Below, one piece after another: positions 6,001 through 29,012 of a stretch of 64,000 nt of DNA. The notes below the pieces were generated by a model. The model was not told the origin of the DNA, ran no database searches, and worked only from the letters and a program-made list of their open reading frames with translations. The number at the start of each line of letters is the position of its first letter. Within the stretch, counting starts at the first letter, position 1. Both the position numbers and the translations under genes were made by a program. Where the stretch lies: positions 1-64,000 of IMG/VR virus record IMGVR_UViG_3300013286_000013. One strand, given 5' to 3'. This stretch comes from a virus.

Positions 6001-9000
6001 TACATCGTCAACACGCACATATCCTGCTGTCTGTATTTCAGAAATATATTCTGAGAAGTTAGTATCCAAAGTTGGAAACACACTACCGTAATCGTAATCA
6101 TCTGGTGCAACTAACATATCACTTTGAGGAACACGATATATGAAATCATTATTAATAGCAGGATAACCTGTAAATTGTATAATCTGAGGATTCTGAACGA
6201 ATCTCTGATCATTTAGATTGAACTGTAATTCCTTGTAAGAACTATAGCCACCAAATGCTCCTATTCTAAAAGCCCAAGTTTCTAAAAATTCAACTTCGCC
6301 TTGCAGATTATTAAGACTTGCCTTGGCTAATTTAGTAATAGAATTAGACGTGCCTTTTTCTTTGATATATCCTTGATAGAATTTATACTGTGCAATTCTA
6401 TCATCAAAAATATTATCTAAGTATATTCTTGGAGTATATCCTGTAAGATGTTGGGCCATACGTTGCTGGCCAATATCAAAATTATCTATATCCAAACTAT
6501 AAAAATCTTCAAACTGAGTTATCTTATATTCAAAGTTTGGTAGCAATGCAGGCACGGGTTTTGATGTCAATCCCCGCCACACTTTAAAATCAAAAGATGT
6601 AGAACCGTCGACCTTCTTAATAGCTGAATAATATTTTCCAGAATATCTCACAACTTCGCCCGGTGCATAATCTGAGTTTGGTTGCCAGTCAGCAACAACT
6701 GCTTCATCATATATAAATCCAGGAGTTGCAAGACCGCCATTCCATTCTGCTGTTCTAAACCCTGTTAATTTGATACGTTGCTGACGATAGCCAGTGTCTT
6801 TATCGTACACAATATCTTTGAACATACTGAAATTATTAAAAACAACCGCATGTTGCTTTTGTATAATATTCACCTGAGCAAAGTAGAAACCTGTGTTAGG
6901 TAATAAAGATTCAATTACAAATTCACCATCTTCCCGTGATAAGGTAAACTGCTGACTAGGAAATGCTGTTCCGTCTGAAGTTAATAAATTATATTGATAA
7001 TATGGATCTGTTAGATCATCAACTACTCCATATAGAGTTTTATTTCCTGCACTGTCAGATGTTTTAAATTTAATCTGCTGAGCGAAGGGGCTTAACACCA
7101 ATAACGATCCGTCTATCCAATTCTGCGTTGTCCAGAATAAAAATTCTCTTGTTGAAAAATCCCAATCAAGTATTGAATTAAGGTCTGACTGAAAGTAATC
7201 AAATACAAACCCCTGGCTTTCTAAATATTTTCCGTAGCCAATTAAAAAATCGTAAACGTCTTGTATTGTTAGTAGTGTCGACCCATAAGAGATAGTAACT
7301 GGTACAGTTTCGTATTTTACTGCCTTGGCAACTGTGATACCACCAACCACCGGCAATTCTACTAACTGCTGGAAGTTGCTCGGAGAGAATGTTGTAGTCG
7401 CAGTATGACTTAGTTTTGTTCTGTAATAGACGTTTTGGTAAGATACCAATTGACCTGTTTGATAGAATTTATTTTCAGTCCAGGTTACATAATTTTCAGA
7501 AGCTCCGCCTAGTGTGACTTTGGTATCTTGAAAACTGTGAATAGGAGTTAATATTGTAAAATAAGGTTTGAGAGAATCATATCCCTTTACAGTATATGCT
7601 CCTTGATTTTTTTGAATAATAATACCGCTGACTGACAAAGATGTAATAGGGTTACTCTGATGTAGATAGATATTATAATCTTCCGAAGGTAGTAATACTC
7701 CGGGATTAACGCTAGATGGATCTACTGAATCAATCCGTACCGCTAACTTGTCTTTGTCTAAAAATCCTTCTGCTTTGTATATTAGATTATAATCCACACC
7801 AGTAAGATCTACTTTTAGTCTATTAATATAATTATTATTTCTTTGCAACCCTGCTTCAATTAGCAGGACGCTGTAGCCAGCCGCATATTGCAATTTTCCA
7901 GCAACAGTATCTCTATACAGAATAAGGTCTGAAAGTTTTAATAATTGTTCATTATCGCCGTATACTGTTTGACCGGCCACTGAAAATTTAATTCTGCTGG
8001 TGTCGAAAAGCAGGGACGCATATTTGGCAGGCTTAGTAAGAGTAAGCAGTATCTGAACGGCGAAAGGCCATGCGCTTGATCTTCTCCATGCTGTTTCAGC
8101 CGGAGAGTGATCTCCAAAAATCCATTCTGCATTGGTCTGATTAAAAATAACATTCTGTGCCAGACCAATGCGTTGCGGATCTAATAATGTTCCATTTTCA
8201 GTAACTGGTAATATCTTTAATAGATTCGGTCTAGCATAATTTAAATCAATGCCGGCCCTATCGCCGCTACGAATAATACCCTGTGATAAATCTGACCATA
8301 AGATTGTATTACCAGACGTAAATGGTGCCGGGCCGTATTGTGCCTTCCACCAATCCGGCTGTTCGCTGAACCCTAGCATTTCCCATGCATGGGTATGCGG
8401 ACGATCAGTGTCATAGAAATATTTAAAAATTCCTCTCCAATGGCCAGGAAGTTGTAGATTATTTGTAGGGTTAGTTGCAGATGTTCTAAAATTCCATGTT
8501 CGCGGATCGTATACCGCAATTATATTTGTTCGATAATCGACTCCATTAAATCCTGTCCATTTTAAAAATTCCGCGCTCAGAAGTTTAAAAATTTCGTTAT
8601 AACTAAAATCTTTATTTCTATATGCGCCTGGCAACACAGAATTGATATCAAGTAGCGTGGGAGTATATACCGAAGATGATTTTATATTATTAAAAATTCT
8701 CGTTTCTAATTCGAGGATAATATCATCTCTGTAATCGCCGTATGCCAGCATGATACTGCCGTCGTGTCCTTCAATTACAAATGCCGGCGTTGTATATGTT
8801 GTATCAAAATACTTTGATGGTCGGAAGCTAGGGTATAGGCCTAACTTTGACGGTGTTGGCGGAACGTAACAACCTTGTGTTGTTGCATAAAACTTTATTT
8901 CAATAATATCGTTGAGTGTTAGTTTTTTAATAAAAGTTACACTGGGATCTGTGCTAGGAATAGTATAGTCTATGCCTAGTATTAACTGTACTCCGTTAAT

Positions 9001-11823
9001 GTAAATTATCACTGCTTTGTCATTAACATCTACCAAATTTACGATCGAAGGAAGAGCGTATGTTGTGATTCTTAAATCTGTTACTGTATAAGTTCTCAAT
9101 ACGTAATCTTGCCCGTATGGAACCATGTCGGAGTAACCATATGGAAACAATACATCTTTTCCTGCGTTAATTGCAGATAAGATTTGATCAACTGCATCTC
9201 GAGGAGTTATTGCATTTGTAATTTCGTTAACTGCTTTAAGGAAAGTAGATTTAAAATTTTGATAATCGTCTGATACTTTCTTCACAGCGTTGATAATACT
9301 ATGTTCTTTCAGTCCAATAAAAAAGTGTGCAAATGACAGAGGTTCGATATGGGAAATTAAGCGGGTGCCGTACTGTGCGGCATCACCTAAGTCTCGCAAA
9401 TTATTAAAACCCAGCGCCGATCCAAAGAAGTTGGGAATCTTTTCAGAAATAGATTGCAACTGATTCGTAAATTCTGCCAATGTCAATTGTGCAATAGGAC
9501 CATTCAACGGATTGTTTGTTAAACTTATGCTAGGCTCGTATACTCCATTCTCGTTAGGAATTGCAGTTGTATAGAGTTTAAACAAGACTCTACTTGAGAT
9601 AGGTAAATTATTATAGAAGACTACAAATAAGTATTGGTTCTGCGGAACAATCTCAAATTCAATATATTGTATTTTTTTGATACCATTTACAAATACATCT
9701 ATTTTTAAATCATTTTGCCATCCCGGATAATTGACCGCATTAACTTCCACGTTCGATGTTGCTATCTCAATCACCTGATACTGTAAAATAGCTATAGGAA
9801 GATTAATTGACGGCGTCCAGGCATTTACATATTTTGTCGATACCCCGTTTGATATTTTTAAAAATCCGGATGACACAGGCACGATCGAAGTTCCTGTAGC
9901 TGATGCTACAGAAAATGTGTCTGTATTAAAATAGTTTGTGAAAAGAAAGTCACCAATATTCGCAACATTGAGATATTTTAAATCAAGGCCCAACACCGGG
10001 TCGTGTATGGTACCTTTGGTATAGCCGAATAATTTAGTTCCGGAAAAATTTCCAGGATAATAGGCTGTGTTGCTGTAGCTTATTCCGTTGGCATCAAATA
10101 GGTCAAATACGGGAGCTTGGTTTAACCCTGTTTTCTGTTGGGCCAATATCCAACTCTTGCCATCCCACCACCAACTAGATCCCTTGTATTCGGATCCTTC
10201 TGCTGTAACAACTGTATCTCCAACTGTGGGATTAGAAGCTATATCCTCAACTAGATTAACAATTTGGTTTCCGTTGACAGTTTCTATTTTGACTACAAAA
10301 GTTTTTCCTCTTACTAAAGTATCTTCGTCAGCGTTAAAAATAACTCGATAGCCTTCTTGTAATAATACTCCGTCAATATAGTACCCTGCACTGCCTTCAA
10401 CTGTAAAAAATGCATTAGCTGTTATCGTATCTATTAGATGAACATTGGTTTTTGCTGTTGTGCCAAAATTAAATAATTTAATGTTAGGTTGAAATTCAAT
10501 GATAGGGCGGCGAGCACGTTTGTCTTGCGGAAATACTGCAGGTACACCATTCGCTTTAGCAGATGCCGAAATAATTCCAGCATGGAACCAGCGGTTATAT
10601 CTAGACCAGGGATTTCTATCAGCACTGGCTCGATTGATTGTCACATAGTCCGGGGTAATTGGGGCATTTTTAAAATCATCAAATGGGAACTCATCAAATT
10701 TTTGCGCATCAAAGTTAGTGTTGAGACTATTTGATAGATCAACACTATTTTGCAAGCTATCAAAATCTGTTAGATTAATAGCAGTGCCAACACCTTCAAC
10801 TATCCAACGCTTCTTTGCATAAGACTGAGGAACTACGCTATCTGGAAAGTATATTACCATTCCGTTTGACAGCTGGATATTGTTACCGGAGTTGTATGTT
10901 TTTTTACCTATAAGATCTGCTTCAACGTTCAATTCTGTATTTTCTAATATAGACTTAACAACAATTTTTCCTGCTACACGAGTATCGTCGCCTGCTACGT
11001 AATATAGAACGTCTGGTGTTAGGTCATCGATAGTGACAATAATCTGTCCATCTTTGGAACCATTATTAAGCACTCCGGAGTACTGATCTGCCTGACCGTA
11101 TGATAGTGCTGTCTTAATATAGAGATTATGCACCGAAGTAACATTTAGCACATAGGTTAATCCCCTATAAAAAGTTACAGTAGGATCTGGTGTTAATCCA
11201 TTAGGAGTAAAGATAAAAACAGTAGCATTATTTGTGTCGCTGATTATTTTTTGATCAATAGTTGTAAAAGTATTAACAGTTGCGCCGCCGTCCGTAACAG
11301 TATATGTACTAACTGTGGACTTTTGTATGCCTGTGATTTCTATAGGATCAGGGCCGGCTTCTAACCAATAGTATTGAGTATAGTTTACGAATTTATCAAT
11401 GTCTATCTTGGGATCATAAGAGTATACAGTAGGTCTAAGAATTTTATCATGATTGTCGGTAGTGGCATTGTAATATGATAATTGGTTTAAAAAGTCATCA
11501 TAGCTTATCGCATGTGTTATGTTATTGCTGTCATCTCTAATAATTAGACCAGGATCTAATTGGTAATCTTGTGTTAATTTTGACACACTACCGATATACT
11601 GATCTTTTAATGGATTGTATGTTGATGTAATTTTGCTTCCAACATATCCGCTAATTCTTTCAACTCGAGGAACCTCAACTAACCTATCCAAGGTACTTGA
11701 TAAGAATTTTATATTTTTATCTGTCTTGAGATATTCGGGTAATAAATCGCTGGTCTTTCTCGTGTGACTGGGATCGTTTAAGTTGTAAACGTCAGTTAAT
11801 TCGTTTCGTGTATTTTTTGCCAT
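1..11823 (-). CDS. Giant (>3,941 aa, truncated at window edge) baseplate/virion structural protein with an FG-GAP beta-propeller and CBM5/12-like motifs
   Basis: ATG at 11823 (MAKNTRNELTDVYNLNDPSHTRKTSDLLPEYLKTD...). The same frame is still open at positions 60-1 (...GLVDSQIATTVNSTFTTIVS). No stop-terminated long ORF is listed here, consistent with one frame running off the window. Follows the gp6-like gene. Seven FG-GAP-like blades at ~4050-5470. Confidence 0.85.
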   Translation of the reverse strand, partial: MAKNTRNELTDVYNLNDPSHTRKTSDLLPEYLKTDKNIKFLSSTLDRLVEVPRVERISGYVGSKITSTYNPLKDQYIGSVSKLTQDYQLDPGLIIRDDSNNITHAISYDDFLNQLSYYNATTDNHDKILRPTVYSYDPKIDIDKFVNYTQYYWLEAGPDPIEITGIQKSTVSTYTVTDGGATVNTFTTIDQKIISDTNNATVFIFTPNGLTPDPTVTFYRGLTYVLNVTSVHNLYIKTALSYGQADQYSGVLNNGSKDGQIIVTIDDLTPDVLYYVAGDDTRVAGKIVVKSILENTELNVEADLIGKKTYNSGNNIQLSNGMVIYFPDSVVPQSYAKKRWIVEGVGTAINLTDFDSLQNSVDLSNSLNTNFDAQKFDEFPFDDFKNAPITPDYVTINRASADRNPWSRYNRWFHAGIISASAKANGVPAVFPQDKRARRPIIEFQPNIKLFNFGTTAKTNVHLIDTITANAFFTVEGSAGYYIDGVLLQEGYRVIFNADEDTLVRGKTFVVKIETVNGNQIVNLVEDIASNPTVGDTVVTAEGSEYKGSSWWWDGKSWILAQQKTGLNQAPVFDLFDANGISYSNTAYYPGNFSGTKLFGYTKGTIHDPVLGLDLKYLNVANIGDFLFTNYFNTDTFSVASATGTSIVPVSSGFLKISNGVSTKYVNAWTPSINLPIAILQYQVIEIATSNVEVNAVNYPGWQNDLKIDVFVNGIKKIQYIEFEIVPQNQYLFVVFYNNLPISSRVLFKLYTTAIPNENGVYEPSISLTNNPLNGPIAQLTLAEFTNQLQSISEKIPNFFGSALGFNNLRDLGDAAQYGTRLISHIEPLSFAHFFIGLKEHSIINAVKKVSDDYQNFKSTFLKAVNEITNAITPRDAVDQILSAINAGKDVLFPYGYSDMVPYGQDYVLRTYTVTDLRITTYALPSIVNLVDVNDKAVIIYINGVQLILGIDYTIPSTDPSVTFIKKLTLNDIIEIKFYATTQGCYVPPTPSKLGLYPSFRPSKYFDTTYTTPAFVIEGHDGSIMLAYGDYRDDIILELETRIFNNIKSSSVYTPTLLDINSVLPGAYRNKDFSYNEIFKLLSAEFLKWTGFNGVDYRTNIIAVYDPRTWNFRTSATNPTNNLQLPGHWRGIFKYFYDTDRPHTHAWEMLGFSEQPDWWKAQYGPAPFTSGNTILWSDLSQGIIRSGDRAGIDLNYARPNLLKILPVTENGTLLDPQRIGLAQNVIFNQTNAEWIFGDHSPAETAWRRSSAWPFAVQILLTLTKPAKYASLLFDTSRIKFSVAGQTVYGDNEQLLKLSDLILYRDTVAGKLQYAAGYSVLLIEAGLQRNNNYINRLKVDLTGVDYNLIYKAEGFLDKDKLAVRIDSVDPSSVNPGVLLPSEDYNIYLHQSNPITSLSVSGIIIQKNQGAYTVKGYDSLKPYFTILTPIHSFQDTKVTLGGASENYVTWTENKFYQTGQLVSYQNVYYRTKLSHTATTTFSPSNFQQLVELPVVGGITVAKAVKYETVPVTISYGSTLLTIQDVYDFLIGYGKYLESQGFVFDYFQSDLNSILDWDFSTREFLFWTTQNWIDGSLLVLSPFAQQIKFKTSDSAGNKTLYGVVDDLTDPYYQYNLLTSDGTAFPSQQFTLSREDGEFVIESLLPNTGFYFAQVNIIQKQHAVVFNNFSMFKDIVYDKDTGYRQQRIKLTGFRTAEWNGGLATPGFIYDEAVVADWQPNSDYAPGEVVRYSGKYYSAIKKVDGSTSFDFKVWRGLTSKPVPALLPNFEYKITQFEDFYSLDIDNFDIGQQRMAQHLTGYTPRIYLDNIFDDRIAQYKFYQGYIKEKGTSNSITKLAKASLNNLQGEVEFLETWAFRIGAFGGYSSYKELQFNLNDQRFVQNPQIIQFTGYPAINNDFIYRVPQSDMLVAPDDYDYGSVFPTLDTNFSEYISEIQTAGYVRVDDVTATAYNINSILDIGDPNLIAEGSTFWLGYSPTGSWDVLRYTRQNVQIIQVTVTEPGIGTQFTTAQSHGLVVGEVIAVSRFIPDLNKVYLVTSVESNTQFTVSSTLTAVPYSSDIYIGIVSKFVSVRFGSFDDLASLPRLTTTKYGDKIWVDDDGSKKWAVYEKIDNYSATTYSDAVDNTNQQYGFSYSTDESTSTYVVSAPGFYDNNYGYGKIFVYDKTSVRDVKVNTLFTYSLKEAGHDYYLSTIPPQYGYSLKFDAADNVIFAGAPATSRVRGDVTGTGNLRFVQDTNNITQLDRTGMIKITAVNRVLNQPVTLAVLTTPNPTSNGRYGNSIVVNSSATNKQFLVGAPGEGIGQVYNYNMTLGLYNTSTVSISALAALSNNNLPQGSFFGQSIAASADLSIVAVGAPGAYTNTGVVRIYTKNSNNTFTALPVDITKDTAGLLGIITSGDLLGNKLVMSKDGKYLFISSPGTQYGLYQGMVSVWQWNGSKFTWLQNLTQPNRNSNTIFGFDISIDDNKQTLIVSSLGTLELQNITFDTYMGLLPNAQSLYGTKYVKDYTTDVRHLKTTFDNQSTRFYSNIEGAGSVSVFNRYHTYFSYAQDIQSNSITTGSDFGYSVAQLAGNIYVGAPTSDTMAGKNNGQTFIFKKIDTSVNSWKLLRYEEPLVDPSVIKRLMVIDSVKDTITQYLEIFDPVKGYIPGTANQELTYKTITDPAVYTLGTGKISVDTNTNWTDDHVGELWWDTGAVKYFWYEQGDLEYRKNQWGTTFPGSAIQVYEWVSSNLLPSEWAAVADTSNGLLRGISGQPKHPDNSVLSVKQVYNAVTSTFSNIYYYWVRNKTTIPAGVKNRRISAITVAGLIADPKNQLVEHATILRQDAVALVNVKDLINNNSTNLHINFDRLTSSAPRHTEWLLLQEGDPYGSPSTMLEQKLIDSLVGYDKIGQPVPDPALSVQQRYGINVRPRQTMFADRAEALRTVLEWTNTVLLENRILSLKSIPNLKMMEAIPSPQQNAWDQVVETNYQLGLVETRALSQAQLVCTINSNGGIDRVIISYPGGGYNYLYPPTVTVSGNGYGAVIQTTLSETGRVVGATIVEPGYGYTEVPKLLVRPYTVYVQTDSEAKNMWSKFEWSQAEQLWTRIHSQQYDVTKYWYPVDWARADYNNLQLISYTISDTYGLNGITPKLGDLVKIQNAGAGRFVVLKKVDRTIKVGTFDTDYDIIAEEKGTIQIDPALWRPSLTNFAFDEIAAYDSTFFDQSPDVELSYILKAIKNDLFVGDLKQYWNKFFFHAVKYAFSEQANLDWAFKTAFINVRNKAGSLDKRPTYKLQDSAFYEKWIEEVKPYHTKIRNFTTDYTSLDPTHTFSSDFDLPAYYDQTLEEFTTIKSYSDPLLKTYPWKSWADNFSYSVGEVQITDGGSNYVSPPKVQIITAPNDTGYGAFARAYISLGKVYDIVVLDPGSNYTETPTVVLTGGGGQDFTQAKARVQLYNGKVRKTSVTMKFDRISYGTEIADVKTTDYFIGDGETYTWALTWVPQAEKNTIDLTIDGSMILSDQYTIQYYSDFFTNTSGVTALKKFAKLVLNFVPDKEKRLVLNYTKDIKLLSAVDRINNYYNPASGMPGKELTQLMKGMTFGGVKVDTLPFNYASGWDALPFYTSAWDSYSSESNYGVVTDPLNLAVSLSAVHRAELVKVLDELSFWTTRLAQLQSALAQTPTLIQVPGAGVQLVNNPQYQYILGQVNESQIQVNGYSAKAAELNSLISNEAANLIPVTTPFAVPVGASINVYVTTGSGRTTRLDPTVVPTIVGTGTTATVYIPLVNFTQDFSATQYVTFRDQTSDGTILPGDPDALDAVISGGQLGEITLGIKPSDILLDGSAFLDANYSHAPEELLPGQVQESFAVTVFESKGQASPLIINRKYLLDNLTTTFEIGGKPASTASVLVSVGTTPLRYAVDYSVNTIANTVSIASNTWTGWLSVSGLTVGGTGLVDSQIATTVNSTFTTIVS

Positions 11824-11833
11824 TTTTAAATTC

Positions 11834-14800
11834 TTATACGATAGATAGTCTTGAAGGAGTCAATGCTGTGATAATTTCTATATCCGCCACGGCGGCTCCG
11901 CTTACAAATATTTCGTTACTCTGGCAAGCTATTTCAAATAGATTACCGAAAGACGAACCATTCTTAGAAACGATAATAAAGTTTGTAATATCAGGTGTCA
12001 TCATGTTCATAACGTAGGTAGATAACTCACTGAAATTAAACGAATCACCAAAATTCCAATTGTCGAGGGCGAAGAATTCATTAATTAGAGAAATAATTCT
12101 AGTTTTTAAATTATTATCATTAATAGGAATATTAGGATTTTTTACAGCTCTAAATGTTGCCTGTAGATTTAATTCTGCGGCTGGTCCAAATAAAATTTTA
12201 TATTTTGCAGGATGATATATAATCGTGTCTGATATACTTTTTATAGGATTGAGATATTGACTATAGGTATCTTCGAGTGTAGCTGTCGTCGGAGGCTGAG
12301 GTTCCATTTTAGTAGTGTCTAACAACCACATTCTGTAAGCAGTATCATAACCTTTGGTTAGCATATAGATATCAATGATGTTTGATTTAGCAGGATCTAT
12401 ACGCTTCTCTTCTCCGCTGTTATGAATATAATGAAATTTTAAATTGCTACGACCTGCACGAGCAAAGAACTGCGGTTGCAGTAGATAGGCTAGGTTTTCT
12501 GCAGAATATTGTTTAACTACATCTGCCGAATAGAAATAATACAACTGACCATCTATTGGAGAATCTACATAGCTTTCGTCGGGGTATGCAATAAACTTGC
12601 TGAAGGGATAAAGTTGATATCTTGAGCCGTCTTTCATTAATTGAAAATATACGAAGTTTCCAAGGAACCCTGTTTGCACTAAGGTATTTTGACTGTCGGT
12701 AATGATTGCAAAACTATCAGGATCGTCTATTTGTCCGTTATTTTTAGAATCATAGAAACTAATCAAAATCTTTTTAGGTTCTACGTATCCGTCATTTTCA
12801 ACTATAGATTCATCAACTTGCCATGAATGATCTTTACCTAATTCGTTGATAGTCTGTCCTGCAGGTATTACTATCCAGGCGCCGTTTATTTTTCTACTTA
12901 CAATATCATTAAGTGTATTAAGATAGAAATCTCCATTGACTCCTAGGGTTGATTGTGGGGTGGCCGAGCCGTGTCGCCATGTATTTCCTAGATTAGGAAT
13001 CGTATTAATACCTAATACAGAAATTTTGTCTTTGATAGTAGTATTGGAAACATAATCAAAATTATTTTTATAATCATCTATAAAGAATGAAGTTTGTTCT
13101 GCACTTTCAAATACATAATTTGTTTTTCTATAGAATGCAGTATAAGAAGTGCCAGTCCACTGAAACGCAAAAATCCAAGATGAATCAACATTTTGATTGG
13201 TAACATCTCCTTGGTATATTAGACTGAACTTAGTTTGTAGATCAATATTAGTATCCGTAACTATATACCATGCTCGAGTAAGCCTATCGAAACTTAATCC
13301 AAAGTTAAGTTTTCCTACCATTTGATTTACAATTTGGTTTTCCAGAGCGAACGGTAAACTTGTAACAAGTTGCGGAATTATCTCAACTGGGATAGAACCG
13401 TCAGCTATGAACCCTGTTAGTACTATTGGACCGGTGCCGTCATTTAAGAGACCGTTGCCACTATTTGACCCGTCACCGGTTACTAGAGATACTCGTGCCC
13501 AGGTGTATGTGCGTGTTGTAGAGTCAGCTTGGTCAGTTAGTCTTCCTGATGGTAGATAATATTTTCCTGCAGGTGGCTGAAATTTAATCAGGGCGCCACC
13601 TGTAATATATTGTGTATTACTACTGCTGAAATATCCAACTTGCTGTGGTGTTGTGGTGCCGCTGGCAAAATCGTATTTGTCTTTGAAATAGCCACGGACC
13701 TGCCCAGATTCAGTCTGTGCAAGAGTCCAACTGATGTTGATGTTTGACAAGTCTGGTCTTGGATATTTGTCAAAGTAGAAATTTCTAGTTGTTGGGTTTT
13801 CAAGCAATGGTTCAATTTTAGATTTCAAAACACCAAATGCTTGATTACGATTATCAAATGTAAATGTAAAACTCAGCTGTTGATCTTCTTTATAAATTAT
13901 CCCATCCTGAGCATATATATCTGTTTGACTGTACCTGCCTGTGACATCATTGAGATCAAAGTATTTGCTAATTCCAGAACTCTGTCTGTTGATACTTTTA
14001 ACTTTGATAACGTCCGATGCAACGGTAACTGGTCCGATATTATAATCCTCTCCTGTTATCATTCTATTTTGTAGATAATAATTTTGAGGAGCCTTTTGTT
14101 TGATAGATAAATCTGTTTCTGCAGGCGAACTATTGTAGACAGAATATTGCAAACTCAATGTCAATGACAAAGATTGCGTTTGTCCTGCACTGTTTACATA
14201 GGGTATTCTTACTGACAGGCCGTTGATGTCTGATGGTGAAATCGTATATCTTAATCCGTTGCTCTGTCTATAATACAATGCAAACTTACCTTTAGGTAGA
14301 TCACCAAAGTTGCCATCTGCAAAGTTTAAATCAATTTGATCATTGATCCTAGAAGTAACAGCATATAAAGTTCTTGTGTTTAAATTTAAACTATTATAGA
14401 TAACGTTATTGCCCACCGTAGCCTCAACTTTAGACCACTCTCTATCGTAGGCTCCGTTCGCACTCAGTTGCCACAGCCAAACGTCACTATTGTTGATATC
14501 AGTAGCATTGATACCAACAATTTCATTTGGAACTGGATTATCAACAGAGAACGAAGTGCTGTTTAAGGATCCCTGTTTAAAATGCATAAAGAATCCAGTA
14601 TTTTTTGCACCTGCTCCTTGATTGTCATTCCTCCAAATTATGCCAGTCTGTCTTCCGGGCAGTGGAGATTCTTCATATATGTAAGTTTTATCTTTAAAGG
14701 TTGCACTTACCAATTCAAACGCCATGGCCAATCCGCTGATAGATTTATTAAAAGTATATACAGGAGCACCAGTTTGATCTGTGTTTATTCTATATTGTTC

Positions 14801-15349
14801 TGTTGAAATTCCGCCAATGGTATCTGACAGGGCTGGAGACCCAAATGCCATACCGGACGGCATTGCAGAATTCATGACTAGAATCCACTGCTGATACCAG
14901 TTATTATTAGAAGGATCATCCCAGCTGATAATTTGATTGGCAAGATTGATTCCGTTGTTGTCAGTAATAGAATCTGTCGTGCTGATGGCGGTAATTTTTA
15001 AAAGCCCGCTGGCTGGTGTATTTCTTTGTGCATTGTAACTGATCAGCTGTGCTAAACGTAGGATACTATCTCGGCGCTGGGCTGTTTCTAGAAAGTTTTC
15101 ACGAGCATTTAAATCAACACGGAAACTTAAATTCTGACCTAGATAACAGATGAGATCTACCAAGGCAATAAACTCAGAACTTTCAATGTAGTCATTGAAG
15201 TTCTCAGGATAATTTGCTTTTAGATATTGAACTGCTGATCGACGAAGAGTATCGTAGTCATACGATTTGAAATCTGCATTATTAAAGGATTGGTAGATCT
15301 TAGTCCAATCTTCTGCGACAAGTAGTTTTGAGTTAGTTGCTGGTATCAT
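11834..15349 (-). CDS. Baseplate wedge subunit, T4 gp6-like
   Basis: N-terminal DFKSYDYDTLR...YPENFNDYIESSEFIALVDL...ENFLETAQRRDSILRLAQLISY and internal KAPQNYYLQNRMITGEDY motifs typical of gp6/baseplate-J-like wedge proteins; adjacent to a gp25-like gene. Confidence 0.85.
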   Translation of the reverse strand: MIPATNSKLLVAEDWTKIYQSFNNADFKSYDYDTLRRSAVQYLKANYPENFNDYIESSEFIALVDLICYLGQNLSFRVDLNARENFLETAQRRDSILRLAQLISYNAQRNTPASGLLKITAISTTDSITDNNGINLANQIISWDDPSNNNWYQQWILVMNSAMPSGMAFGSPALSDTIGGISTEQYRINTDQTGAPVYTFNKSISGLAMAFELVSATFKDKTYIYEESPLPGRQTGIIWRNDNQGAGAKNTGFFMHFKQGSLNSTSFSVDNPVPNEIVGINATDINNSDVWLWQLSANGAYDREWSKVEATVGNNVIYNSLNLNTRTLYAVTSRINDQIDLNFADGNFGDLPKGKFALYYRQSNGLRYTISPSDINGLSVRIPYVNSAGQTQSLSLTLSLQYSVYNSSPAETDLSIKQKAPQNYYLQNRMITGEDYNIGPVTVASDVIKVKSINRQSSGISKYFDLNDVTGRYSQTDIYAQDGIIYKEDQQLSFTFTFDNRNQAFGVLKSKIEPLLENPTTRNFYFDKYPRPDLSNINISWTLAQTESGQVRGYFKDKYDFASGTTTPQQVGYFSSSNTQYITGGALIKFQPPAGKYYLPSGRLTDQADSTTRTYTWARVSLVTGDGSNSGNGLLNDGTGPIVLTGFIADGSIPVEIIPQLVTSLPFALENQIVNQMVGKLNFGLSFDRLTRAWYIVTDTNIDLQTKFSLIYQGDVTNQNVDSSWIFAFQWTGTSYTAFYRKTNYVFESAEQTSFFIDDYKNNFDYVSNTTIKDKISVLGINTIPNLGNTWRHGSATPQSTLGVNGDFYLNTLNDIVSRKINGAWIVIPAGQTINELGKDHSWQVDESIVENDGYVEPKKILISFYDSKNNGQIDDPDSFAIITDSQNTLVQTGFLGNFVYFQLMKDGSRYQLYPFSKFIAYPDESYVDSPIDGQLYYFYSADVVKQYSAENLAYLLQPQFFARAGRSNLKFHYIHNSGEEKRIDPAKSNIIDIYMLTKGYDTAYRMWLLDTTKMEPQPPTTATLEDTYSQYLNPIKSISDTIIYHPAKYKILFGPAAELNLQATFRAVKNPNIPINDNNLKTRIISLINEFFALDNWNFGDSFNFSELSTYVMNMMTPDITNFIIVSKNGSSFGNLFEIACQSNEIFVSGAAVADIEIITALTPSRLSIV

Positions 15350-23629: not shown

Positions 23630-24643
23630 ATGGGACTTTTTAAGAAGGTAGCATGTTTCACCGACATCCATTTTGGGTTGAAGTCAAACTCTGCTACACA
23701 TAATCAAGATTGTGAAGAATTTGTAGATTGGTTTATTGCCAAAGCCAAAGAAGAAGGTGCAGAGTCCTGCATCTTTCTCGGAGACTGGCATCACAACAGA
23801 AACAGCATCAATCTAATTACGCTAGATACTTCAATCCGTTGCTTGGAAAAGCTAGGTGCGGCATTTGAACAGTTCTTTTGGTTTCCAGGAAACCACGACC
23901 TCTTTTATAAAGACAAGCGTGAGATACACTCCAGTGCATTTGGTCGTCATATCCCGGGTGTTACAGTGGTAGACAGTATATGGACAAAAGACGAGGTTAC
24001 TCTTGTTCCGTGGCTGATAGGCGACGAGTGGAAGACCATGCGAGAGCTAAAAAGCAAATATGTCTTTGGTCACTTTGAGCTTCCTTTGTTCTATATGAAC
24101 GCAATGGTACAGATGCCCGACCACGGTGAACTACGTAGAGAAGACTTTGCTGGTCCGGACTATGTATTCAGCGGGCACTTCCACAAGCGACAAGCCAACA
24201 ACAATATCGTCTATATCGGTAATGCATTTCCCCACAACTATTCAGATGCATGGGATGATGACCGTGGCATGATGGTGTTAGAATGGGGTGGCAAGCCTGA
24301 ATATCACATCTGGGAAGATGCTCCTAAGTTTAGAACTATTAAATTATCAGATCTAATTGACCGTAAAGACGATGTTCTCAAGAGTAAGATGTATCTTAGA
24401 GTAAATCTTGACCTTCCGATTACATTTGAAGAAGCTAATTTTATTAAAGAAGACTTTAGTAGCAATTACAACATACGAGAAATGAGTCTTATACAAGAAA
24501 AGACCACCCTCGAAGGTGTGATCGACGATTCAGCTGATGCAAAATTTGAATCAGTAGACCAAATTGTTACTGAGCAGTTGATTAATATCGAGTCTGATCA
24601 GTTTGAACAAAAACTATTGTTGGACATTTACCATAATCTATGA
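23630..24643 (+). CDS. Recombination endonuclease subunit, gp47/Mre11/SbcD-like metallophosphoesterase
   Basis: FTDIHFG, FLGDWHH, PGNHD, GHFE and SGHFH metallophosphoesterase motifs. Confidence 0.93.
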   Translation: MGLFKKVACFTDIHFGLKSNSATHNQDCEEFVDWFIAKAKEEGAESCIFLGDWHHNRNSINLITLDTSIRCLEKLGAAFEQFFWFPGNHDLFYKDKREIHSSAFGRHIPGVTVVDSIWTKDEVTLVPWLIGDEWKTMRELKSKYVFGHFELPLFYMNAMVQMPDHGELRREDFAGPDYVFSGHFHKRQANNNIVYIGNAFPHNYSDAWDDDRGMMVLEWGGKPEYHIWEDAPKFRTIKLSDLIDRKDDVLKSKMYLRVNLDLPITFEEANFIKEDFSSNYNIREMSLIQEKTTLEGVIDDSADAKFESVDQIVTEQLINIESDQFEQKLLLDIYHNL

Positions 24644-26427
24644 CATTTAAAATAAAAAACATCACAGTTAGAAACTTTCTTAGCGTAGGTAATCAAACTC
24701 AAGCAGTTGATTTTGATAAAGAACACTTGACTCTAGTGCTGGGTGAAAACTTAGACCTAGGGGGAGATGATAGCGGAAGCCGTAACGGTACAGGTAAGAC
24801 CACCATTGTCAACGCACTATGCTATGCGCTCTACGGAAACGCACTAACTAACATTCGCAAAGAGAACTTGATCAATAAAACCAACGGCAAAGGCATGTTG
24901 GTCACTGTTGAGTTTGATGTAAATGGCATTTCTTATCGTATTGAGCGCGGTCGTAAGCCTAACATTTTAAAGTTTTACGTCAACGATCAGGAACAGAAAT
25001 CAGTAGATGTTGAAGATGATGCTCAGGGCGATAGCCGTGAAACGCAGAAACATATAGAACAATTACTGGGTATGAGCCCGTTGATGTTCAAGCATTTGGT
25101 AGCGTTGAACACTTATACTGAACCTTTTTTGAGTCTTAAAGCGGCAGAACAACGTGAGATCATTGAGCAATTATTAGGCATAACTCTGCTTTCAGAGAAG
25201 GCAGAAAGCCTTAAAGCTCAAATGAAAGACACCAAAGACGCTATTATTTCAGAGTCTGCAAAGATTGAAGCTACTAAAACTGCTAACGAAAACGTTCAAA
25301 AGAGCATCGATAGCCTAGGAATTAAGAGTTCAGCATGGGAATCTAAGAAAGATAACGACCTAGAAGGGCTAGGCAAAGCTATTGTGCAATTAAGTTCTGT
25401 AGATATTGAGTTAGAAATTGGTCTGCATGAGAAACTTAAAATGTGGACTGAGAACAACAACAAGATTAAAGATCTTAACAAACAACGTGCTACTTTAGAA
25501 TCTGCGATCGGGCAAGCTGAAAAAAGCGTAAAGAAGTATAGTGGCGAGCTAGAAAAACTTGCAAATAAAACATGTCATGCCTGTGAACAAGAACTCCACG
25601 ATCACAAGCACAGTGAAATGACTGCTGAGGCTACTACACACTTGGCTGAAGCCAACACATATTTTGATAAAGTCACTAAAGATTTTAACAAGATACAAAA
25701 AGAAATCAAGGCGATTGGTGAGCTAGATAAAAAGCCAACGACCTTTTACGAAACACTACAGGAAGCACTTGGACATAAGAATAATCTTGCTAATCTTGAG
25801 AAGGCACTTGAAACAAAGGTAATTGAGCCAAATCCCTATGTAGAACAGATTGAAGAATTAAAACATACTGCACTACAGGATATCGATTGGAACTCTATTA
25901 ATTCTCTAACAAAATTTAAAGAGCATCAAGAATTCCTGTACAAACTGTTGACAAACAAAGATTCATTTATCCGCAAGAAGATCATTGATCAAAACTTGAC
26001 GTTCTTGAACAAGCGTCTAGGATACTATATTGATAAAATTGGTTTGCCACATGCTGTTGTATTCCAAAATGACCTTACTGTGGAAATTACCCAGCTAGGA
26101 CAGGACTTGGACTTTGACAACTTGAGTCGTGGTGAGCGTAATAGACTGATCTTAGGATTGAGTTGGGCGTTCCGTGATGTTTGGGAAAACCTGTACCAGC
26201 ACGTAAACTTGTTGTTTATAGACGAACTTATCGATGCAGGCATGGACGCGGCAGGCGTCGAAGCGGGACTTGCAGTTCTTAAGAAGATGGCCCGTGAGCG
26301 CAATAAGAATATCTACTTGATCAGTCATAAAGATGAGCTAATCGGACGTGTTAACAACGTGCTTCACGTGATTAAAGAGAACGGATTTACCAGTTACTCA
26401 AACGATGTCGACTACGTAGAGGCATGA
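24640..26427 (+). CDS. Recombination ATPase subunit, gp46/Rad50/SbcC-like
   Basis: Walker A (NGTGKTT), coiled coil with CHAC zinc hook, signature LSRGE, Walker B LLFIDE and H-loop ISH. Confidence 0.95.
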   Translation: MTFKIKNITVRNFLSVGNQTQAVDFDKEHLTLVLGENLDLGGDDSGSRNGTGKTTIVNALCYALYGNALTNIRKENLINKTNGKGMLVTVEFDVNGISYRIERGRKPNILKFYVNDQEQKSVDVEDDAQGDSRETQKHIEQLLGMSPLMFKHLVALNTYTEPFLSLKAAEQREIIEQLLGITLLSEKAESLKAQMKDTKDAIISESAKIEATKTANENVQKSIDSLGIKSSAWESKKDNDLEGLGKAIVQLSSVDIELEIGLHEKLKMWTENNNKIKDLNKQRATLESAIGQAEKSVKKYSGELEKLANKTCHACEQELHDHKHSEMTAEATTHLAEANTYFDKVTKDFNKIQKEIKAIGELDKKPTTFYETLQEALGHKNNLANLEKALETKVIEPNPYVEQIEELKHTALQDIDWNSINSLTKFKEHQEFLYKLLTNKDSFIRKKIIDQNLTFLNKRLGYYIDKIGLPHAVVFQNDLTVEITQLGQDLDFDNLSRGERNRLILGLSWAFRDVWENLYQHVNLLFIDELIDAGMDAAGVEAGLAVLKKMARERNKNIYLISHKDELIGRVNNVLHVIKENGFTSYSNDVDYVEA

Positions 26428-26663
26428 AGCTAAATCAGTACATAGAACTGCATGAAAGATATATTTCGTTGTTGGTAGACTATCACAACGCATATACATC
26501 ATGGGTTAAAAGTCAGTCGCTAGAAAAGACTACAGCATTGCGAAAGATTCTCAAAGAGATGCGTAAGGTACAACACGAAATGTGGGCTACCGCAAACGAC
26601 GCTATGAAAGAATCCAAGCAACGCAAGCGACAAAAATGGAACAGAGAACATAAGGAACAATAA
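26424..26663 (+). CDS. Hypothetical small helical, basic protein
   Basis: 79-aa ORF overlapping the gp46 stop (ATGA) and the next start (TAATG), suggesting translational coupling. Confidence 0.7.
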   Translation: MKLNQYIELHERYISLLVDYHNAYTSWVKSQSLEKTTALRKILKEMRKVQHEMWATANDAMKESKQRKRQKWNREHKEQ

Positions 26664-26857
26664 TGTCAGATACAATCCAAGCAATTAAAGATGCTGTAAC
26701 AGCATGGGAAGCAGAAGATACAAAATTTGAAAAAGGTAACAGCGCCGCTGGTACCCGAGCTCGTAAGGCACTAGGCGAACTTAGCAAATTAGTCAAAGCT
26801 CGCCGCAACGAAATCACAACAGAAAAGAATGCCCGCAAAGAAGCCAAGGTAGCCTAA
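26663..26857 (+). CDS. Histone H1-like (Hc1-family-like) small basic protein
   Basis: KFEKGNSAAGTRARKALGELSKLVKARRNEI resembles the Hc1 core (GNKAAA.R.R); SD TAAGGA upstream. Confidence 0.7.
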   Translation: MSDTIQAIKDAVTAWEAEDTKFEKGNSAAGTRARKALGELSKLVKARRNEITTEKNARKEAKVA

Positions 26858-27406
26858 ATGCGATTCAATTATTTTTTTGTTAAAGGATTTTACTCTCCGG
26901 ATGAGGTCACTAGACTAAAAAATATCTTAATTAAGAATCAAGATAAAACCCAACCAGACGTGCCTGCTAAGAATGTTGTAAAAACAGCCGAAGTAGGTAT
27001 TGTTCCGATCCTTGCCTTGCAGGAACACATTGGTGGCATTTTGAATCTAATTAAAAAAATCAATAAAGAAAACTTTGGTTTTGATCTCTATGATTTCACT
27101 GAGTATGATACTGTAAATTATAATCAGTACAATTCAGATACCAACGGTGAGTACGGGTGGCATACAGATTTTCCTTTGAGTTTCTTTCATCAGATCAAAC
27201 TTACTGTGTTGGTTAACCTAAGTACAGAAAGTTATGAGGGCGGAGACTTTGAGATTTTTTTAAACGGTCCTATTCCTATTCCTGATTTTAAGGAACCAGG
27301 CGGAGTGTTAATTTTTCCATCGTACATATCGCACAGAGTTACACCAGTAACAAAAGGATCTAGATCATCTATGAGCTTGTTTGTTACAGGTCCACGTCTA
27401 AGGTAA
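26858..27406 (+). CDS. 2OG-Fe(II) oxygenase (PKHD/prolyl-hydroxylase-like)
   Basis: YGWHTD (HxD), KLTVLVNLS, YEGGDF, LIFPSYISHRVTPVTKGSRSS (distal His and Arg). Confidence 0.9.
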   Translation: MRFNYFFVKGFYSPDEVTRLKNILIKNQDKTQPDVPAKNVVKTAEVGIVPILALQEHIGGILNLIKKINKENFGFDLYDFTEYDTVNYNQYNSDTNGEYGWHTDFPLSFFHQIKLTVLVNLSTESYEGGDFEIFLNGPIPIPDFKEPGGVLIFPSYISHRVTPVTKGSRSSMSLFVTGPRLR

Positions 27407-27407
27407 T

Positions 27408-27836
27408 ATGGATTGGATTCATAATGGTATGGTAGTTGCAGAACTACCAGAGGATTGTGTCGGTTTTGTTTATCTCATTACCAACAATCTTACAGGCAGA
27501 AAATATATAGGCAAAAAATTAGCAAAGTTTGCAAAGACGACCTACAAGACTGTAAAGTTAAAGAACGGCACAAAGAAGAAAAGGAAAATCCGTAGTAAGA
27601 TTGCCAGCGACTGGCAAGAGTATTACGGATCCAATTTAGAATTAAACACAGACGTACTAAAGTTAGGCAAAGAACAATTCACCCGAGAGATCCTGCACTA
27701 TTGCAAAAGCAAAGCAGTATGCTCTTACATCGAGGCCCTTGAACAATTCAACCGCAAAGTATTAGAATCACAAGATTACTATAACGGACAGATCTCAGTC
27801 CGTGTCCATGGCTCTCACATAATCAACAAAATCTAG
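27408..27836 (+). CDS. Short GIY-YIG (Seg-like) endonuclease, catalytic domain only
   Basis: GFVYLITNNLTGRKYIGKK (GIY-YIG motif), YYGS, FTREIL, conserved Glu (YIEA) and YYN; 142 aa with a Lys/Arg-rich insert. Confidence 0.85.
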   Translation: MDWIHNGMVVAELPEDCVGFVYLITNNLTGRKYIGKKLAKFAKTTYKTVKLKNGTKKKRKIRSKIASDWQEYYGSNLELNTDVLKLGKEQFTREILHYCKSKAVCSYIEALEQFNRKVLESQDYYNGQISVRVHGSHIINKI

Positions 27837-28281
27837 GCTCAGTCTTACAGGATATGCTCGCACCGGCTTAAATCGGGTGCCTAGCGACAACCGGATAATA
27901 ACGGGGACGGAAGCCTCTGCGCTGTACAGAGCACTTATCAACCATCCTTGACAGGACGACGATCGCTATGCCGCGATTTTGATATTTGAATAGAGTGAAT
28001 AAGAGCTAAAAGAGGGGAGAAAAACCCCGGACTTAACGTATATGTTAGCGTATGTATGTTAGGTTACCGTCATAAAAAGACGTAGCTAGGGGTACAGGAT
28101 GACCGCCTCAGTAATGCTACAACGCTAAGTGACTTGCGTACTCAGATAATGCCAAGTGAACTTTACCCGGTTACCTGGGTTAAGTGTGACCATTATATCT
28201 AGATAATACTTAAACATCTAAAGATGTTCTAGAAAATGCTCTGAGCGCAAGCGAAAGAGCAAGTGAACGCAGTTCACTTTT
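27837..28281 (+). ncRNA. Candidate large structured non-coding RNA (family not recognised)
   Basis: About 445 nt with no listed ORF in a gene-dense genome. More than 10 stem-loops read by eye, including a 14-15 bp stem at 28031-28064 with 4-5 G.U pairs that work only on the + strand. Ends in a hairpin plus T run. Confidence 0.6.
28261..28281 (+). terminator. Probable intrinsic terminator at the 3' end of the structured element
   Basis: AAGTGAAC-GCA-GTTCACTT followed by TT. Confidence 0.5.
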
Positions 28282-28292
28282 AGCATTAAACA

Positions 28293-28298
28293 TAAATA
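28293..28298 (+). promoter_or_regulatory. Putative late promoter (TAAATA)
   Basis: TAAATA, then GGAG SD at 28307-10 and ATG at 28320. Confidence 0.6.
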
Positions 28299-28319
28299 TT
28301 CTTGCTGGAGAATGCAAAA

Positions 28320-29012
28320 ATGAAAATAAGTGAATTAGTAATGGAAAGCCATAAACTTGATGAAGCTCCTATGGGCATGCTCAGTAAGTTTGGCAATAAA
28401 GTGATGAGTAAATTTGGTAGCGATACTTCTACTGGAAAGCTAAAGTCAGGTGATGTAGCTAATAAGTTATATTCAGCGTTCAATCAATATCTAGGTCAAT
28501 CAGGACAACAGCCAACATGGCCTGTTGTTTCAAAATGGTTACAGTCAAACAAGTATCCTATCAAGATGGCACAGAAAGTAGTTCAAGGTGCCAAAGCAGA
28601 TGCCGCCATTCCACAAGGGCCTAGCATGTTGGACAGAGCTAAATCTGGTGCTCGACAAGTTGGTAATAAGATTAAACAGGGTGCAGAGAAAGTAGCTAAC
28701 TATGCTATGGACAAAGCTGGTGCTCCTGGAGAGTTTGCTGAAGGTAAAATTAGTGAAGCTACTGGTGCTCCACTAGATAAGAAAACACTAGAGAAAGTGT
28801 TCATGGCGGCCGCTCAAGAAGCCGCAGTAGTTGTTCAACAACGTAAGCAAGGTGGTGGACAGCCTAATCAAAAAAATAACGGACAGCAACAGCTATCTGT
28901 TCAACAAGGTGGTAAGAGTCAAGGTGGAGATGCTAAGTTGGCGCAACGTGTTAGCAACCTTGAAGCTGAAGTTGCCGCACTAAAAGGATCTGGGGAACAA
29001 AACGCCGCTTAA
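28320..29012 (+). CDS. Hypothetical late protein, possible internal head protein
   Basis: Start moved to ATG 28320 because of the SD. N-terminus MKISELVMESHKLDEAP with further hydrophobic-x-E sites resembles gp21-processed internal proteins (inference). Confidence 0.7.
   Translation: MKISELVMESHKLDEAPMGMLSKFGNKVMSKFGSDTSTGKLKSGDVANKLYSAFNQYLGQSGQQPTWPVVSKWLQSNKYPIKMAQKVVQGAKADAAIPQGPSMLDRAKSGARQVGNKIKQGAEKVANYAMDKAGAPGEFAEGKISEATGAPLDKKTLEKVFMAAAQEAAVVVQQRKQGGGQPNQKNNGQQQLSVQQGGKSQGGDAKLAQRVSNLEAEVAALKGSGEQNAA

Follow-up and report, generated by a model that had tools for sequence, protein, structure and literature searches.

The stretch of viral DNA examined here, called the window throughout, is positions 1 to 64,000 (64,000 nucleotides, nt) of the IMG/VR record IMGVR_UViG_3300013286_000013, which is 73,188 bp long in all and rated 21% complete. 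On its plus strand, a gene for a 142-amino-acid (aa) protein made up of a GIY-YIG nuclease domain only (27408 to 27836) is followed by a conserved structured RNA of about 435 nt (27849 to 28282; family profile positions 1 to 433), which is the subject of this report. A preliminary description of the window had placed its largest noncoding gap at the nuclease stop codon, and the stretch from 27837 to 28301 (465 nt) is indeed the largest without an open reading frame (ORF) of at least 50 aa, a ranking that counts an open-ended giant ORF on the minus strand (1 to 11823) as coding. That description had offered two readings of the gap, a nuclease-RNA pair resembling those of IscB and TnpB or an independent large phage noncoding RNA.

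When the whole window was searched against Rfam, a single family exceeded its cut-off: the Polynucleobacter-1 motif (RF01718), which matches 27855 to 27987 on the plus strand over its entire model (positions 1 to 141 of 141) with 81.1 bits (E 1.2e-15; curated cut-off, 37 bits). The first third of the RNA therefore belongs to a described family, contrary to the initial impression that none could be recognized. The remainder matches no Rfam family, no Rfam ribozyme or intron model matches at E values up to 10, and a loose-threshold search of 27300 to 28450 returned one further row, cow-rumen-2 (RF02947; 17.7 bits, E 2.3). The weak likeness to cow-rumen-2 lies at 28031 to 28122, where a UUAGC-loop hairpin is followed by GUAGC..ACAGGAUGACC..GUAA; it falls far under that family's 66-bit cut-off, was not seen in 13 further loci, and was set aside as a lead, not a match. 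A blastn comparison of the gap with 50,697 deposited phage records gave no match. The table of Weinberg et al. 2010 (PMC2864571) has a row for the Polynucleobacter-1 motif, marked "y" for RNA, "y" for cis-regulation, and "?" for switch, with Burkholderiales as the taxon and fresh water or estuary as the habitat. Among the texts examined that name the motif, that table row is its sole mention, and the literature on GIY-YIG proteins together with structured RNA yielded nothing on the RNA element of this locus.

An iterated nucleotide profile of the gap (nhmmer) matches the RNA in 80 of the 85 loci found through the protein, about 63 of them at full length, and the full-length matches begin right behind the GIY-YIG stop codon. 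Folded as a single sequence, the plus strand reaches -137 kcal/mol (z -3.21, with 0 of 100 shuffles as good) and the minus strand a z of -2.08; together with the G.U pairs from which a plus-strand RNA had been proposed, these scores favor that orientation. Covariation was assessed in an alignment of 49 distinct full-length copies, and mutual information was computed from 150 sequences. RNAalifold gave 62 pairs on the 49-copy alignment, 44 with compensatory changes, and the final model, which combines these with mutual information, comprises 94 pairs in 19 helices with two pseudoknots. Across the 49 relatives, 89.1% of the cells of the proposed pairs are paired, compared with 74.2% in shuffles, and both sides have changed in 67 of the 94 pairs. 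The covariation score of 0.419 (0.167 in shuffles) was reached by 0 of 500 shuffles and is 0.07 to 0.10 when partners are slid by 1 to 3 columns.

These results bear out most of the stems proposed from the window sequence, nine of the ten being supported by covariation. They include GCACC/GGTGC, CCG/CGG, CTCTG/CAGAG, TATCAA/TTGATA enclosing TCC/GGA and ATCGC/GCGAT, the long stem at 28032 to 28063, GTAGC/GCTAC, the hairpin at 28161 to 28184, and GGGG/CCCC, the weakest at 63% paired; ATAATG/CATTAT is particular to the window sequence and is not kept in relatives. The phrase "almost entirely paired" was too strong, since 188 of the approximately 435 bases lie in supported pairs, and the structure first drawn held neither the two pseudoknots nor the twin word described below.

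The RNA has four domains, all on the plus strand: the Polynucleobacter-1 motif, a doubly pseudoknotted core, a hairpin flanked by two copies of a short word, and a GNRA-capped stem with a terminal hairpin. Domain 1 (27855 to 27987) contains helices H1 to H6, which are 89 to 100% paired in the 49 relatives, with double changes (on both sides) in 19 of 29 pairs. A non-Watson-Crick covariation was also seen in this domain between 27945 and 27957, with U/C in 37 and C/U in 12 of the 49. Next come H7 (28014 to 28028), the weakly supported GGGG/CCCC hairpin (63.1% of cells paired, double changes in 3 of 4 pairs), and H8 (28032 to 28063), a long hairpin with double changes in 11 of 12 pairs, whose loop, UUAGCG, forms the first pseudoknot (PK1). 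In PK1, 28045 to 28050 pair with 28123 to 28128 (double changes in 6 of 6 pairs, 95.8% paired, corrected mutual information, MIp, 0.42 to 0.73); in the second pseudoknot (PK2), 28069 to 28073 pair with the loop of H10 at 28099 to 28103 (double changes in 3 of 5 pairs, 90.1% paired), and the PK2 pairs 28071-28101 and 28072-28100 are 100% Watson-Crick in the 150 sequences. H9 (28082 to 28120, GTAGC/GCTAC) encloses H10 (28089 to 28093 with 28105 to 28109) and the invariant loop ACAGGAUGACC, the invariant columns of this region in the 49-copy alignment being GGTAC.GG...ACCGCC.

The two copies of the word, R1 (28140 to 28150, A-CUC-AGAUAAU) and R2 (28197 to 28207, A-UCU-AGAUAAU), flank hairpin H11 (28161 to 28184), in which the pairs 28164-28181, 28165-28180, and 28168-28177 are 97 to 99% Watson-Crick with 3 to 5 pair types in the 150 sequences. 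Beyond R2 lies H12 (28215 to 28226), a hairpin variable in sequence and length, with a CUUCG loop in many copies and 56% pairing in fixed columns. H13 (28238 to 28260, GCUCU/AGAGC) encloses H14, a two-pair stem capped by GCAA, in the motif GAGCG.AAGCGAAA, which is kept in the chromosomal island copies described below as well. The terminal hairpin H15 (28261 to 28279; double changes in 7 of 8 pairs, 96.9% paired) is followed in the window by UUUU, a T-run that is not conserved in relatives. The string AAGUGA occurs four times in the window RNA (28128, 28155, 28182, and 28262), three of them 27 nt apart, and is not conserved in relatives.

R1 and R2 covary like with like, their columns being equal, not complementary: mutual information joins 28144 to 28201, 28145 to 28202, 28148 to 28205, and 28150 to 28207. 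In profile-aligned columns the two 7-mers are identical in 144 of 149 distinct relatives, which hold 16 variants; the first six letters are identical in 149 of 149, and the five mismatches all fall on the last letter of the word. The CUC before R1 and the UCU before R2 are invariant. A looser best-pair search recovered a twin word in 186 of 192 cases, and R1 and R2 are spaced by 47 to 60 nt in all but one of 185 loci. A FastTree tree inferred from the alignment minus the word columns requires at least 62 changes of the word, and at least 35 at its position 0 alone; the tree is rough and the count leans high, since exchange of blocks between phages could move both copies together. MIp between the copies is 0.54 to 0.98, the next best column reaches at most 0.21 against the word, and the MIp scan found no third column covarying with it. 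The variable parts of the RNA are H12 and 5 positions of the 7-nt word.

Several simple accounts of the word were tried and rejected. The one candidate for a complement in or near the RNA, a conserved strand of domain 1 that matches the word in 37 of 113 cases when GU pairs are allowed, shows no covariation; pairing of the 3' strand of H11 with the words is possible in the window sequence and likewise does not covary. A partner in trans that has a GGG core was sought in a complete phage genome of 354,680 bp, which holds just the two self sites, and a coding or hopping unit is not in keeping with word spacings that show no preference for multiples of 3 (68, 67, and 50 for the three remainders). 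The 8-mer YAGATAAT occurs 17 times in the window, against 7.04 expected (0 of 100 shuffles reach 17); as a genome-wide motif the word was nevertheless discarded, the 17 sites sharing no context and the flanks showing no enrichment of a phage's own word. Like-with-like covariation is not explained by base pairing within the RNA and suggests an unknown reader or an unusual RNA interaction.

The distribution of the RNA was also sampled from the RNA side, by a scan for the core motif alone, which gave at least 120 stretches and 119 new loci, and the profile matches the RNA in all 119. Eight of these have no room upstream; the remaining 111 were assessed, and the counts that follow hold among the matches listed. 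A GIY-YIG gene lies at most 120 nt upstream of the RNA in 77 and at 135 to 240 nt in 21, where the first domain of the RNA is different; 790 to 1,940 nt separate gene and RNA in 8, and there is no GIY-YIG gene in 5. In one locus found through the protein (L016), a gap of about 950 nt between the two is filled by a 300-aa ORF of no assigned family, and the RNA follows that ORF. In three of the five loci without GIY-YIG, a nuclease of another fold, PDDEXK_15 (PF24608; 2.5e-29 and 4.5e-24 in the two scanned), takes its place behind the gene for the gp46/SbcC-like ATPase and lies directly upstream of the RNA (3963 to 4484 in L126, 2614 to 3126 in L131, and 265 to 771 in L147).

The nuclease gene also occurs alone. 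Five of the 85 close GIY-YIG loci (gene 75 to 79% identical) are without the RNA; there the gene is preceded by one for the small chain of ribonucleotide reductase (PF00268, 2.6e-75) and has an overlap with a gene for a membrane protein, and the core motif was not found in the five records, all of them fragments. In Melnitz-3, P-SSM2, and phiM12, at most 148 nt follow the GIY-YIG gene, and the whole genomes hold no core motif with one mismatch allowed. Among 18 core-holding loci, selected chiefly for a profile match that starts near position 170 and lacks the first third, RF01718 fell below its gathering cut-off in 16, with other sequence replacing domain 1; domain 1 is therefore swappable. 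Each of five large phage records, two of them 99 to 100% complete, holds one RF01718 match. The gene order is kept across the phage loci: gp46, small genes, GIY-YIG, the RNA, a variable stretch, and then, on the opposite strand, orf61 (61 aa) and a T4-type baseplate hub gene. In uncultured jumbo T4-like phages of fresh water, the RNA gene is present once per genome and its place is constant.

The RNA also occurs in bacterial chromosomes. A core-motif scan of one genome per species gave 27 stretches, with the RNA recognized by profile in 16; several of the stretches are on phage-like contigs binned into metagenome-assembled genomes (MAGs), and some of the stretches have no T4-like neighbors. 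RF01718 exceeds its cut-off in 16 of 141 sampled Polynucleobacter genomes, often on megabase contigs. All 11 chromosomal loci examined (L251 to L261, 15 to 20 kb) share one module, which consists of an integrase, an AAA protein matching clamp-loader PHROGs (phrog_168, 1.8e-22), two proteins of no family, a 188-aa tyrosine recombinase comprising the Phage_integrase catalytic domain only (3.4e-26), a variable ORF, the RNA, and, beyond the RNA, a divergent gene of DUF6641 (7.5e-13). Neither GIY-YIG nor PDDEXK_15 was found within 20 kb in these 11 loci. The island copies keep the four-domain layout and the twin word with other letters, the 7-mers being identical in 6 of 9 and differing at 1 or 2 letters in the others. 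The island looks like a mobile or satellite-like element that shares the RNA with jumbo phages. DUF6641 was considered as a universal partner and dropped, as it was not found in six phage records (two of them 99 to 100% complete) in a search in which control genomes also gave no match; no mention of it was found in the literature. Inversion of cargo by the small recombinase was likewise dropped, no inverted repeats being found at the expected borders of the islands.

The GIY-YIG protein of the window matches Pfam PF19835 SegE_GIY-YIG (1.6e-31, residues 3 to 129) and phrog_447 (1.6e-35). Its AlphaFold2 model (mean predicted local distance difference test score, pLDDT, 92.1) has as its closest fold in the PDB the catalytic domain of I-TevI (probability 0.98, E 0.074); the model shows no DNA-binding domain, and the basic insert forms a long beta-hairpin (strands 40 to 50 and 56 to 66). 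Among relatives in viral contigs, of which the best 80 of at least 570 were kept, identity across the phage loci is 70 to 82%, compared with 50 to 78% for gp46 and 30 to 50% for the hub protein; the GIY-YIG gene thus behaves as a core gene, not as a roving homing endonuclease. Homologues less than 60% identical are held by 458 deposited phage records, mostly cyanophages, and are widely labeled "NAD synthetase" in deposited cyanophage and other phage genomes, which looks like a propagated misannotation.

Whatever the upstream ORF, its stop codon lies about 12 nt ahead of the conserved RNA in the phage copies, which leaves no space for a promoter. A promoter scan of the window was at chance level (8 found, 6.2 expected), and a sigma-70-like site inside the GIY-YIG ORF (27739 to 27768) is within chance expectation. 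Contigs from RNA libraries cover the oxygenase gene upstream of GIY-YIG (see below), the GIY-YIG gene, and the RNA in pieces, at depths of 2.6 to 9.4, and end before 28258; one bridges 27794 to 28005 with 3 differences and lends weak support to read-through. The earlier suggestion that the RNA lacks a promoter of its own and is cotranscribed with the nuclease agrees with the short stop-to-RNA distance and, weakly, with the bridging contig, as far as the phage copies are concerned. At the other end, 37 of 136 distinct RNAs have their 3' end at most 60 nt from the convergent orf61, which rules out a leader in those cases; the gap after the RNA exceeds 300 nt in 94 of the 136 and holds variable genes such as a 230-aa ORF in the window.

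Around these features in the window, the gp46/SbcC-like ATPase gene (24640 to 26427; Pfam and PHROG) is followed by a 79-aa ORF, a gene for a 64-aa Hc1 histone H1-like protein (26663 to 26857; PF07432, 1.6e-15), and a 2-oxoglutarate (2OG)-Fe(II) oxygenase gene (26858 to 27406), which stands between Hc1 and GIY-YIG. Many relatives retain the Hc1 gene, the second one ahead of the nuclease gene, and the oxygenase gene is present only in the closest ones (L002, L003, L082, L084, and L086). The 230-aa variable ORF (28320 to 29012, plus strand) lies outside the RNA, begins with MKISEL, is matched in just five viral contigs, gave no Pfam match above cut-off and no PHROG match, and is missing where the RNA abuts orf61; beyond it, on the opposite strand, are orf61 and the baseplate hub gene. 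Proteins that begin M-[KR]-I-[NST]-E-[LI], match no family, and in many cases have a tail of low complexity occur near the RNA in 19 of 186 loci (for example at 28320 to 29012 in the window, 4979 to 5917 in L126, 4487 to 4903 in L223, 1343 to 1843 in L214, and 5590 to 5997 in L252) and also on MAG contigs without T4-like neighbors. As a partner of the RNA, proteins of this "MKI[NST]EL" kind were rejected, being near it in just those 19 loci. The giant minus-strand ORF at 1 to 11823 encodes at least 3,941 aa and continues beyond the first position of the window, and a 1,171-aa ORF follows on the same strand at 11834 to 15349; an alternative genetic code for the apparent gaps at 1 to 12 kb is needless, one giant ORF filling the stretch. 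ARAGORN found 0 transfer RNA or transfer-messenger RNA genes in the window.

Taken together, the GIY-YIG nuclease is a frequent neighbor and not a required partner of the RNA, because a PD-(D/E)xK nuclease substitutes for it, islands carry the RNA without a nuclease, and GIY-YIG homologues occur without the RNA. A nuclease-RNA pair in the manner of IscB or TnpB does not agree with these observations, each component occurring without the other and the same RNA standing behind an unrelated nuclease or a 300-aa ORF, nor with the relatives' lack of a long variable guide-like segment; an independent large phage noncoding RNA fits the evidence. The RNA looks like a gene in its own right and not like a guide for the nuclease.

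We give a probability of roughly one half to the proposal that the gap holds a stand-alone gene for a structured RNA of about 435 nt, a trans-acting scaffold bearing a specificity word that is read twice. The phage RNA would be made as the 3' part of the messenger RNA (mRNA) of the upstream ORF, here the GIY-YIG gene, and the island RNA from its own promoter region, and the RNA would then act alone in trans. The knotted core would be the scaffold that presents, in single-stranded form and with some 50 nt between them, two identical words, A-CUC-RNAURA-N and A-UCU-RNAURA-N, and the words would be a fast-changing specificity element read twice by one reader. That reader might be a bivalent nucleic acid or protein, or the copies might read each other; the field of action would likely be replication and recombination, in the phage as well as in other elements of the same host.

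A number of observations weigh against this proposal. A complement of the word at a constant place was not found within 600 nt, the complete 354,680-bp phage genome holds no third copy or complement of the 12-mer, and a phage's own word is not enriched in its own flanks (own/other rates of 0.6 to 2.0; 155 loci, 1.36 Mb). The words lie only about 55 nt apart, and phages that swapped the whole segment would make joint changes look more frequent than they are. GIY-YIG lies within 240 nt in 98 of the 111 loci from the RNA side, among the matches listed, and there may be a functional tie to "a nuclease" in phages. Replication and recombination are suggested as the field by the gene neighborhood alone, and the expression data are assembled RNA-library contigs of low depth, open to DNA carry-over, which say nothing on level, ends, or absence.

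Short repeated words that set lineage-specific specificity within one transcript are known from the P4 CI RNA (seqA/seqC) and the c4 RNAs of P1 and P7 (a/b boxes), where the repeats are complementary to a third box inside the same RNA. An immunity RNA of the P4 CI or P1 c4 type was rejected here, since, unlike those RNAs, this one has no internal complementary box that could be found and no third covarying column. It is a speculative extension of the stand-alone RNA, and a doubtful one, that the twin word is an RNA-borne self-recognition code. By its fast joint switching, jumbo T4-like phages, and likewise the satellite-like chromosomal islands in their hosts, would distinguish their own RNA from that of competitors. 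The copies might pair parallel-stranded, like with like, held by the H11 linker, or one bivalent partner might read both; if true, this would be a new kind of RNA specificity determinant common to a virus and cellular mobile elements.

The RNA might instead act in cis, as a 3' untranslated region (UTR) that stabilizes, terminates, or feeds back on the upstream mRNA or as a leader that controls the downstream gene. The absence of promoter room after the stop codon, H15 with its UUUU in the window, the plus-strand ORF that starts 38 nt past the RNA there, and the variable ORF that often follows the RNA in islands are all in keeping with such a role, as is the cis-regulatory mark in the 2010 table row for Polynucleobacter-1 (PMC2864571). 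The placement as a 5' leader that this class implies is not what we observe, however, as the RNA follows an ORF, and 37 of 136 RNAs have a convergent gene at most 60 nt past their end and so no downstream gene to control. The upstream gene varies as well (GIY-YIG, PDDEXK_15, or the 300-aa ORF) and is divergent in islands, the T-run after H15 is not conserved, and about 435 nt with two pseudoknots and invariant loops far exceed the needs of known terminators and UTR stabilizers. We consider a cis-acting element unlikely.

An origin or recombination element is improbable also. The RNA would then be a primer or R-loop RNA, as is ColE1 RNA II, or the words would be DNA sites such as iterons or matching crossover cores. 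The neighbors agree with this idea, the phage having a gp46/SbcC-like gene (24640 to 26427) and the islands a clamp-loader-like AAA gene and two genes of the tyrosine-recombinase family. Tyrosine recombinases typically require identity between two short cores in their overlap regions, and the identity of the twin words may be seen as resembling that requirement. The word spacing, however, takes all values from 47 to 60 bp with no helical phasing, no inverted binding arms surround the words, and in phages the RNA has no recombinase gene nearby. Contigs from the sequencing runs show no joint such as a deletion between the words would leave, and the locus is not a turning point of skew. Covariation shows selection on the RNA fold, with which a primer role is still compatible.

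A ribonucleoprotein formed with the adjacent small nuclease, which the RNA would guide, activate, or hold back, with the twin words as guide or specificity segments, is very unlikely in our assessment. The proximity speaks for it: the RNA starts about 12 nt past the nuclease stop codon, GIY-YIG is within 120 nt in 77 of 111 loci (matches listed) and at 135 to 240 nt behind a different 5' domain in 21 more, and a different nuclease type holds the same place in three loci, as if "a nuclease" were wanted. The protein, with just a basic hairpin and no DNA-binding domain, and the fast change of the words, as in specificity elements, also suit this idea. It would, however, require two unrelated nuclease folds to share one conserved scaffold, and it is countered by the 11 island loci without either nuclease within 20 kb, the 5 of 85 close GIY-YIG loci without the RNA, and the 458 phage records with homologues, from which the three cultured phages checked have no RNA-sized gap or core motif. 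The variable part measures 6 to 7 nt in 16 variants, with no long guide, and there is no sign of mobile-element ends.

The comparison with OMEGA RNAs, those of IscB/IsrB (HEARO) and of TnpB, is instructive in this respect. The likeness is one of layout, a small nuclease gene with a structured RNA, several hundred bases long, directly next to it, whereas the OMEGA nucleases are of the RuvC/HNH kind and the enzyme here is GIY-YIG (SegE_GIY-YIG alone in Pfam, with an I-TevI fold) or PD-(D/E)xK. OMEGA RNAs have a long hypervariable guide at one end of the conserved scaffold, whereas in this RNA H12 and 5 word positions vary; unlike those systems, this one lacks transposon ends, and RNA and nuclease each occur alone. 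The Rfam families of OMEGA and HEARO RNAs do not match it.

Least probable, and scarcely to be expected, is a self-processing RNA in which both words are cut at the same site, a piece of about 57 nt containing H11 is released or circularized, and the flanks are rejoined leaving one word. With identical words at both borders, excision would always yield one and the same junction; catalysis is common among RNAs that are large, knotted, and highly conserved, and T4-like phages commonly encode RNA repair enzymes. Up to an E value of 10, however, the Rfam models of ribozymes and introns do not match, no joint across 28144 to 28201 appears in sequencing-run contigs, and no known self-cleaver needs a 7-letter identity. 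A group I intron with a GIY-YIG homing endonuclease was rejected on the same search and on flanking ORFs that are complete and unrelated, and a type III toxin-antitoxin system (ToxI-like), marked by tandem repeats of a full RNA unit ahead of an endoribonuclease toxin gene, was rejected because here just a word of 7 to 11 nt is repeated, not in a tandem array (the tandem-repeat scan covered positions 1 to 12000 of the window), downstream of a gene of DNA-nuclease type.

The stand-alone RNA proposed here has its nearest counterparts among the large orphan structured RNAs of phages and bacteria, GOLLD, ROOL, raiA, and OLE, which it resembles in size, complexity and conservation of fold, and presence in phages; there is no match in sequence or structure, and we know of no covarying direct repeat in those RNAs. 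With the Polynucleobacter-1 motif the correspondence is direct, as the whole model is matched, the same helices covary, and the freshwater habitat and the Polynucleobacter chromosomes agree; the model covers the first third of the approximately 435-nt RNA, and the knotted core and the twin word lie outside it.

An orphan Rfam motif listed as a possible cis-regulator since the 2010 table (PMC2864571) proves to be the first third of a much larger knotted RNA. This RNA is a fixed single-copy gene of abundant uncultured jumbo phages of lakes and is found in islands of cultivable Polynucleobacter as well; since those integrase islands carry it, the RNA can be studied in a culturable bacterium. Its distribution is also a warning that not every structured RNA beside a small nuclease gene is a guide RNA.

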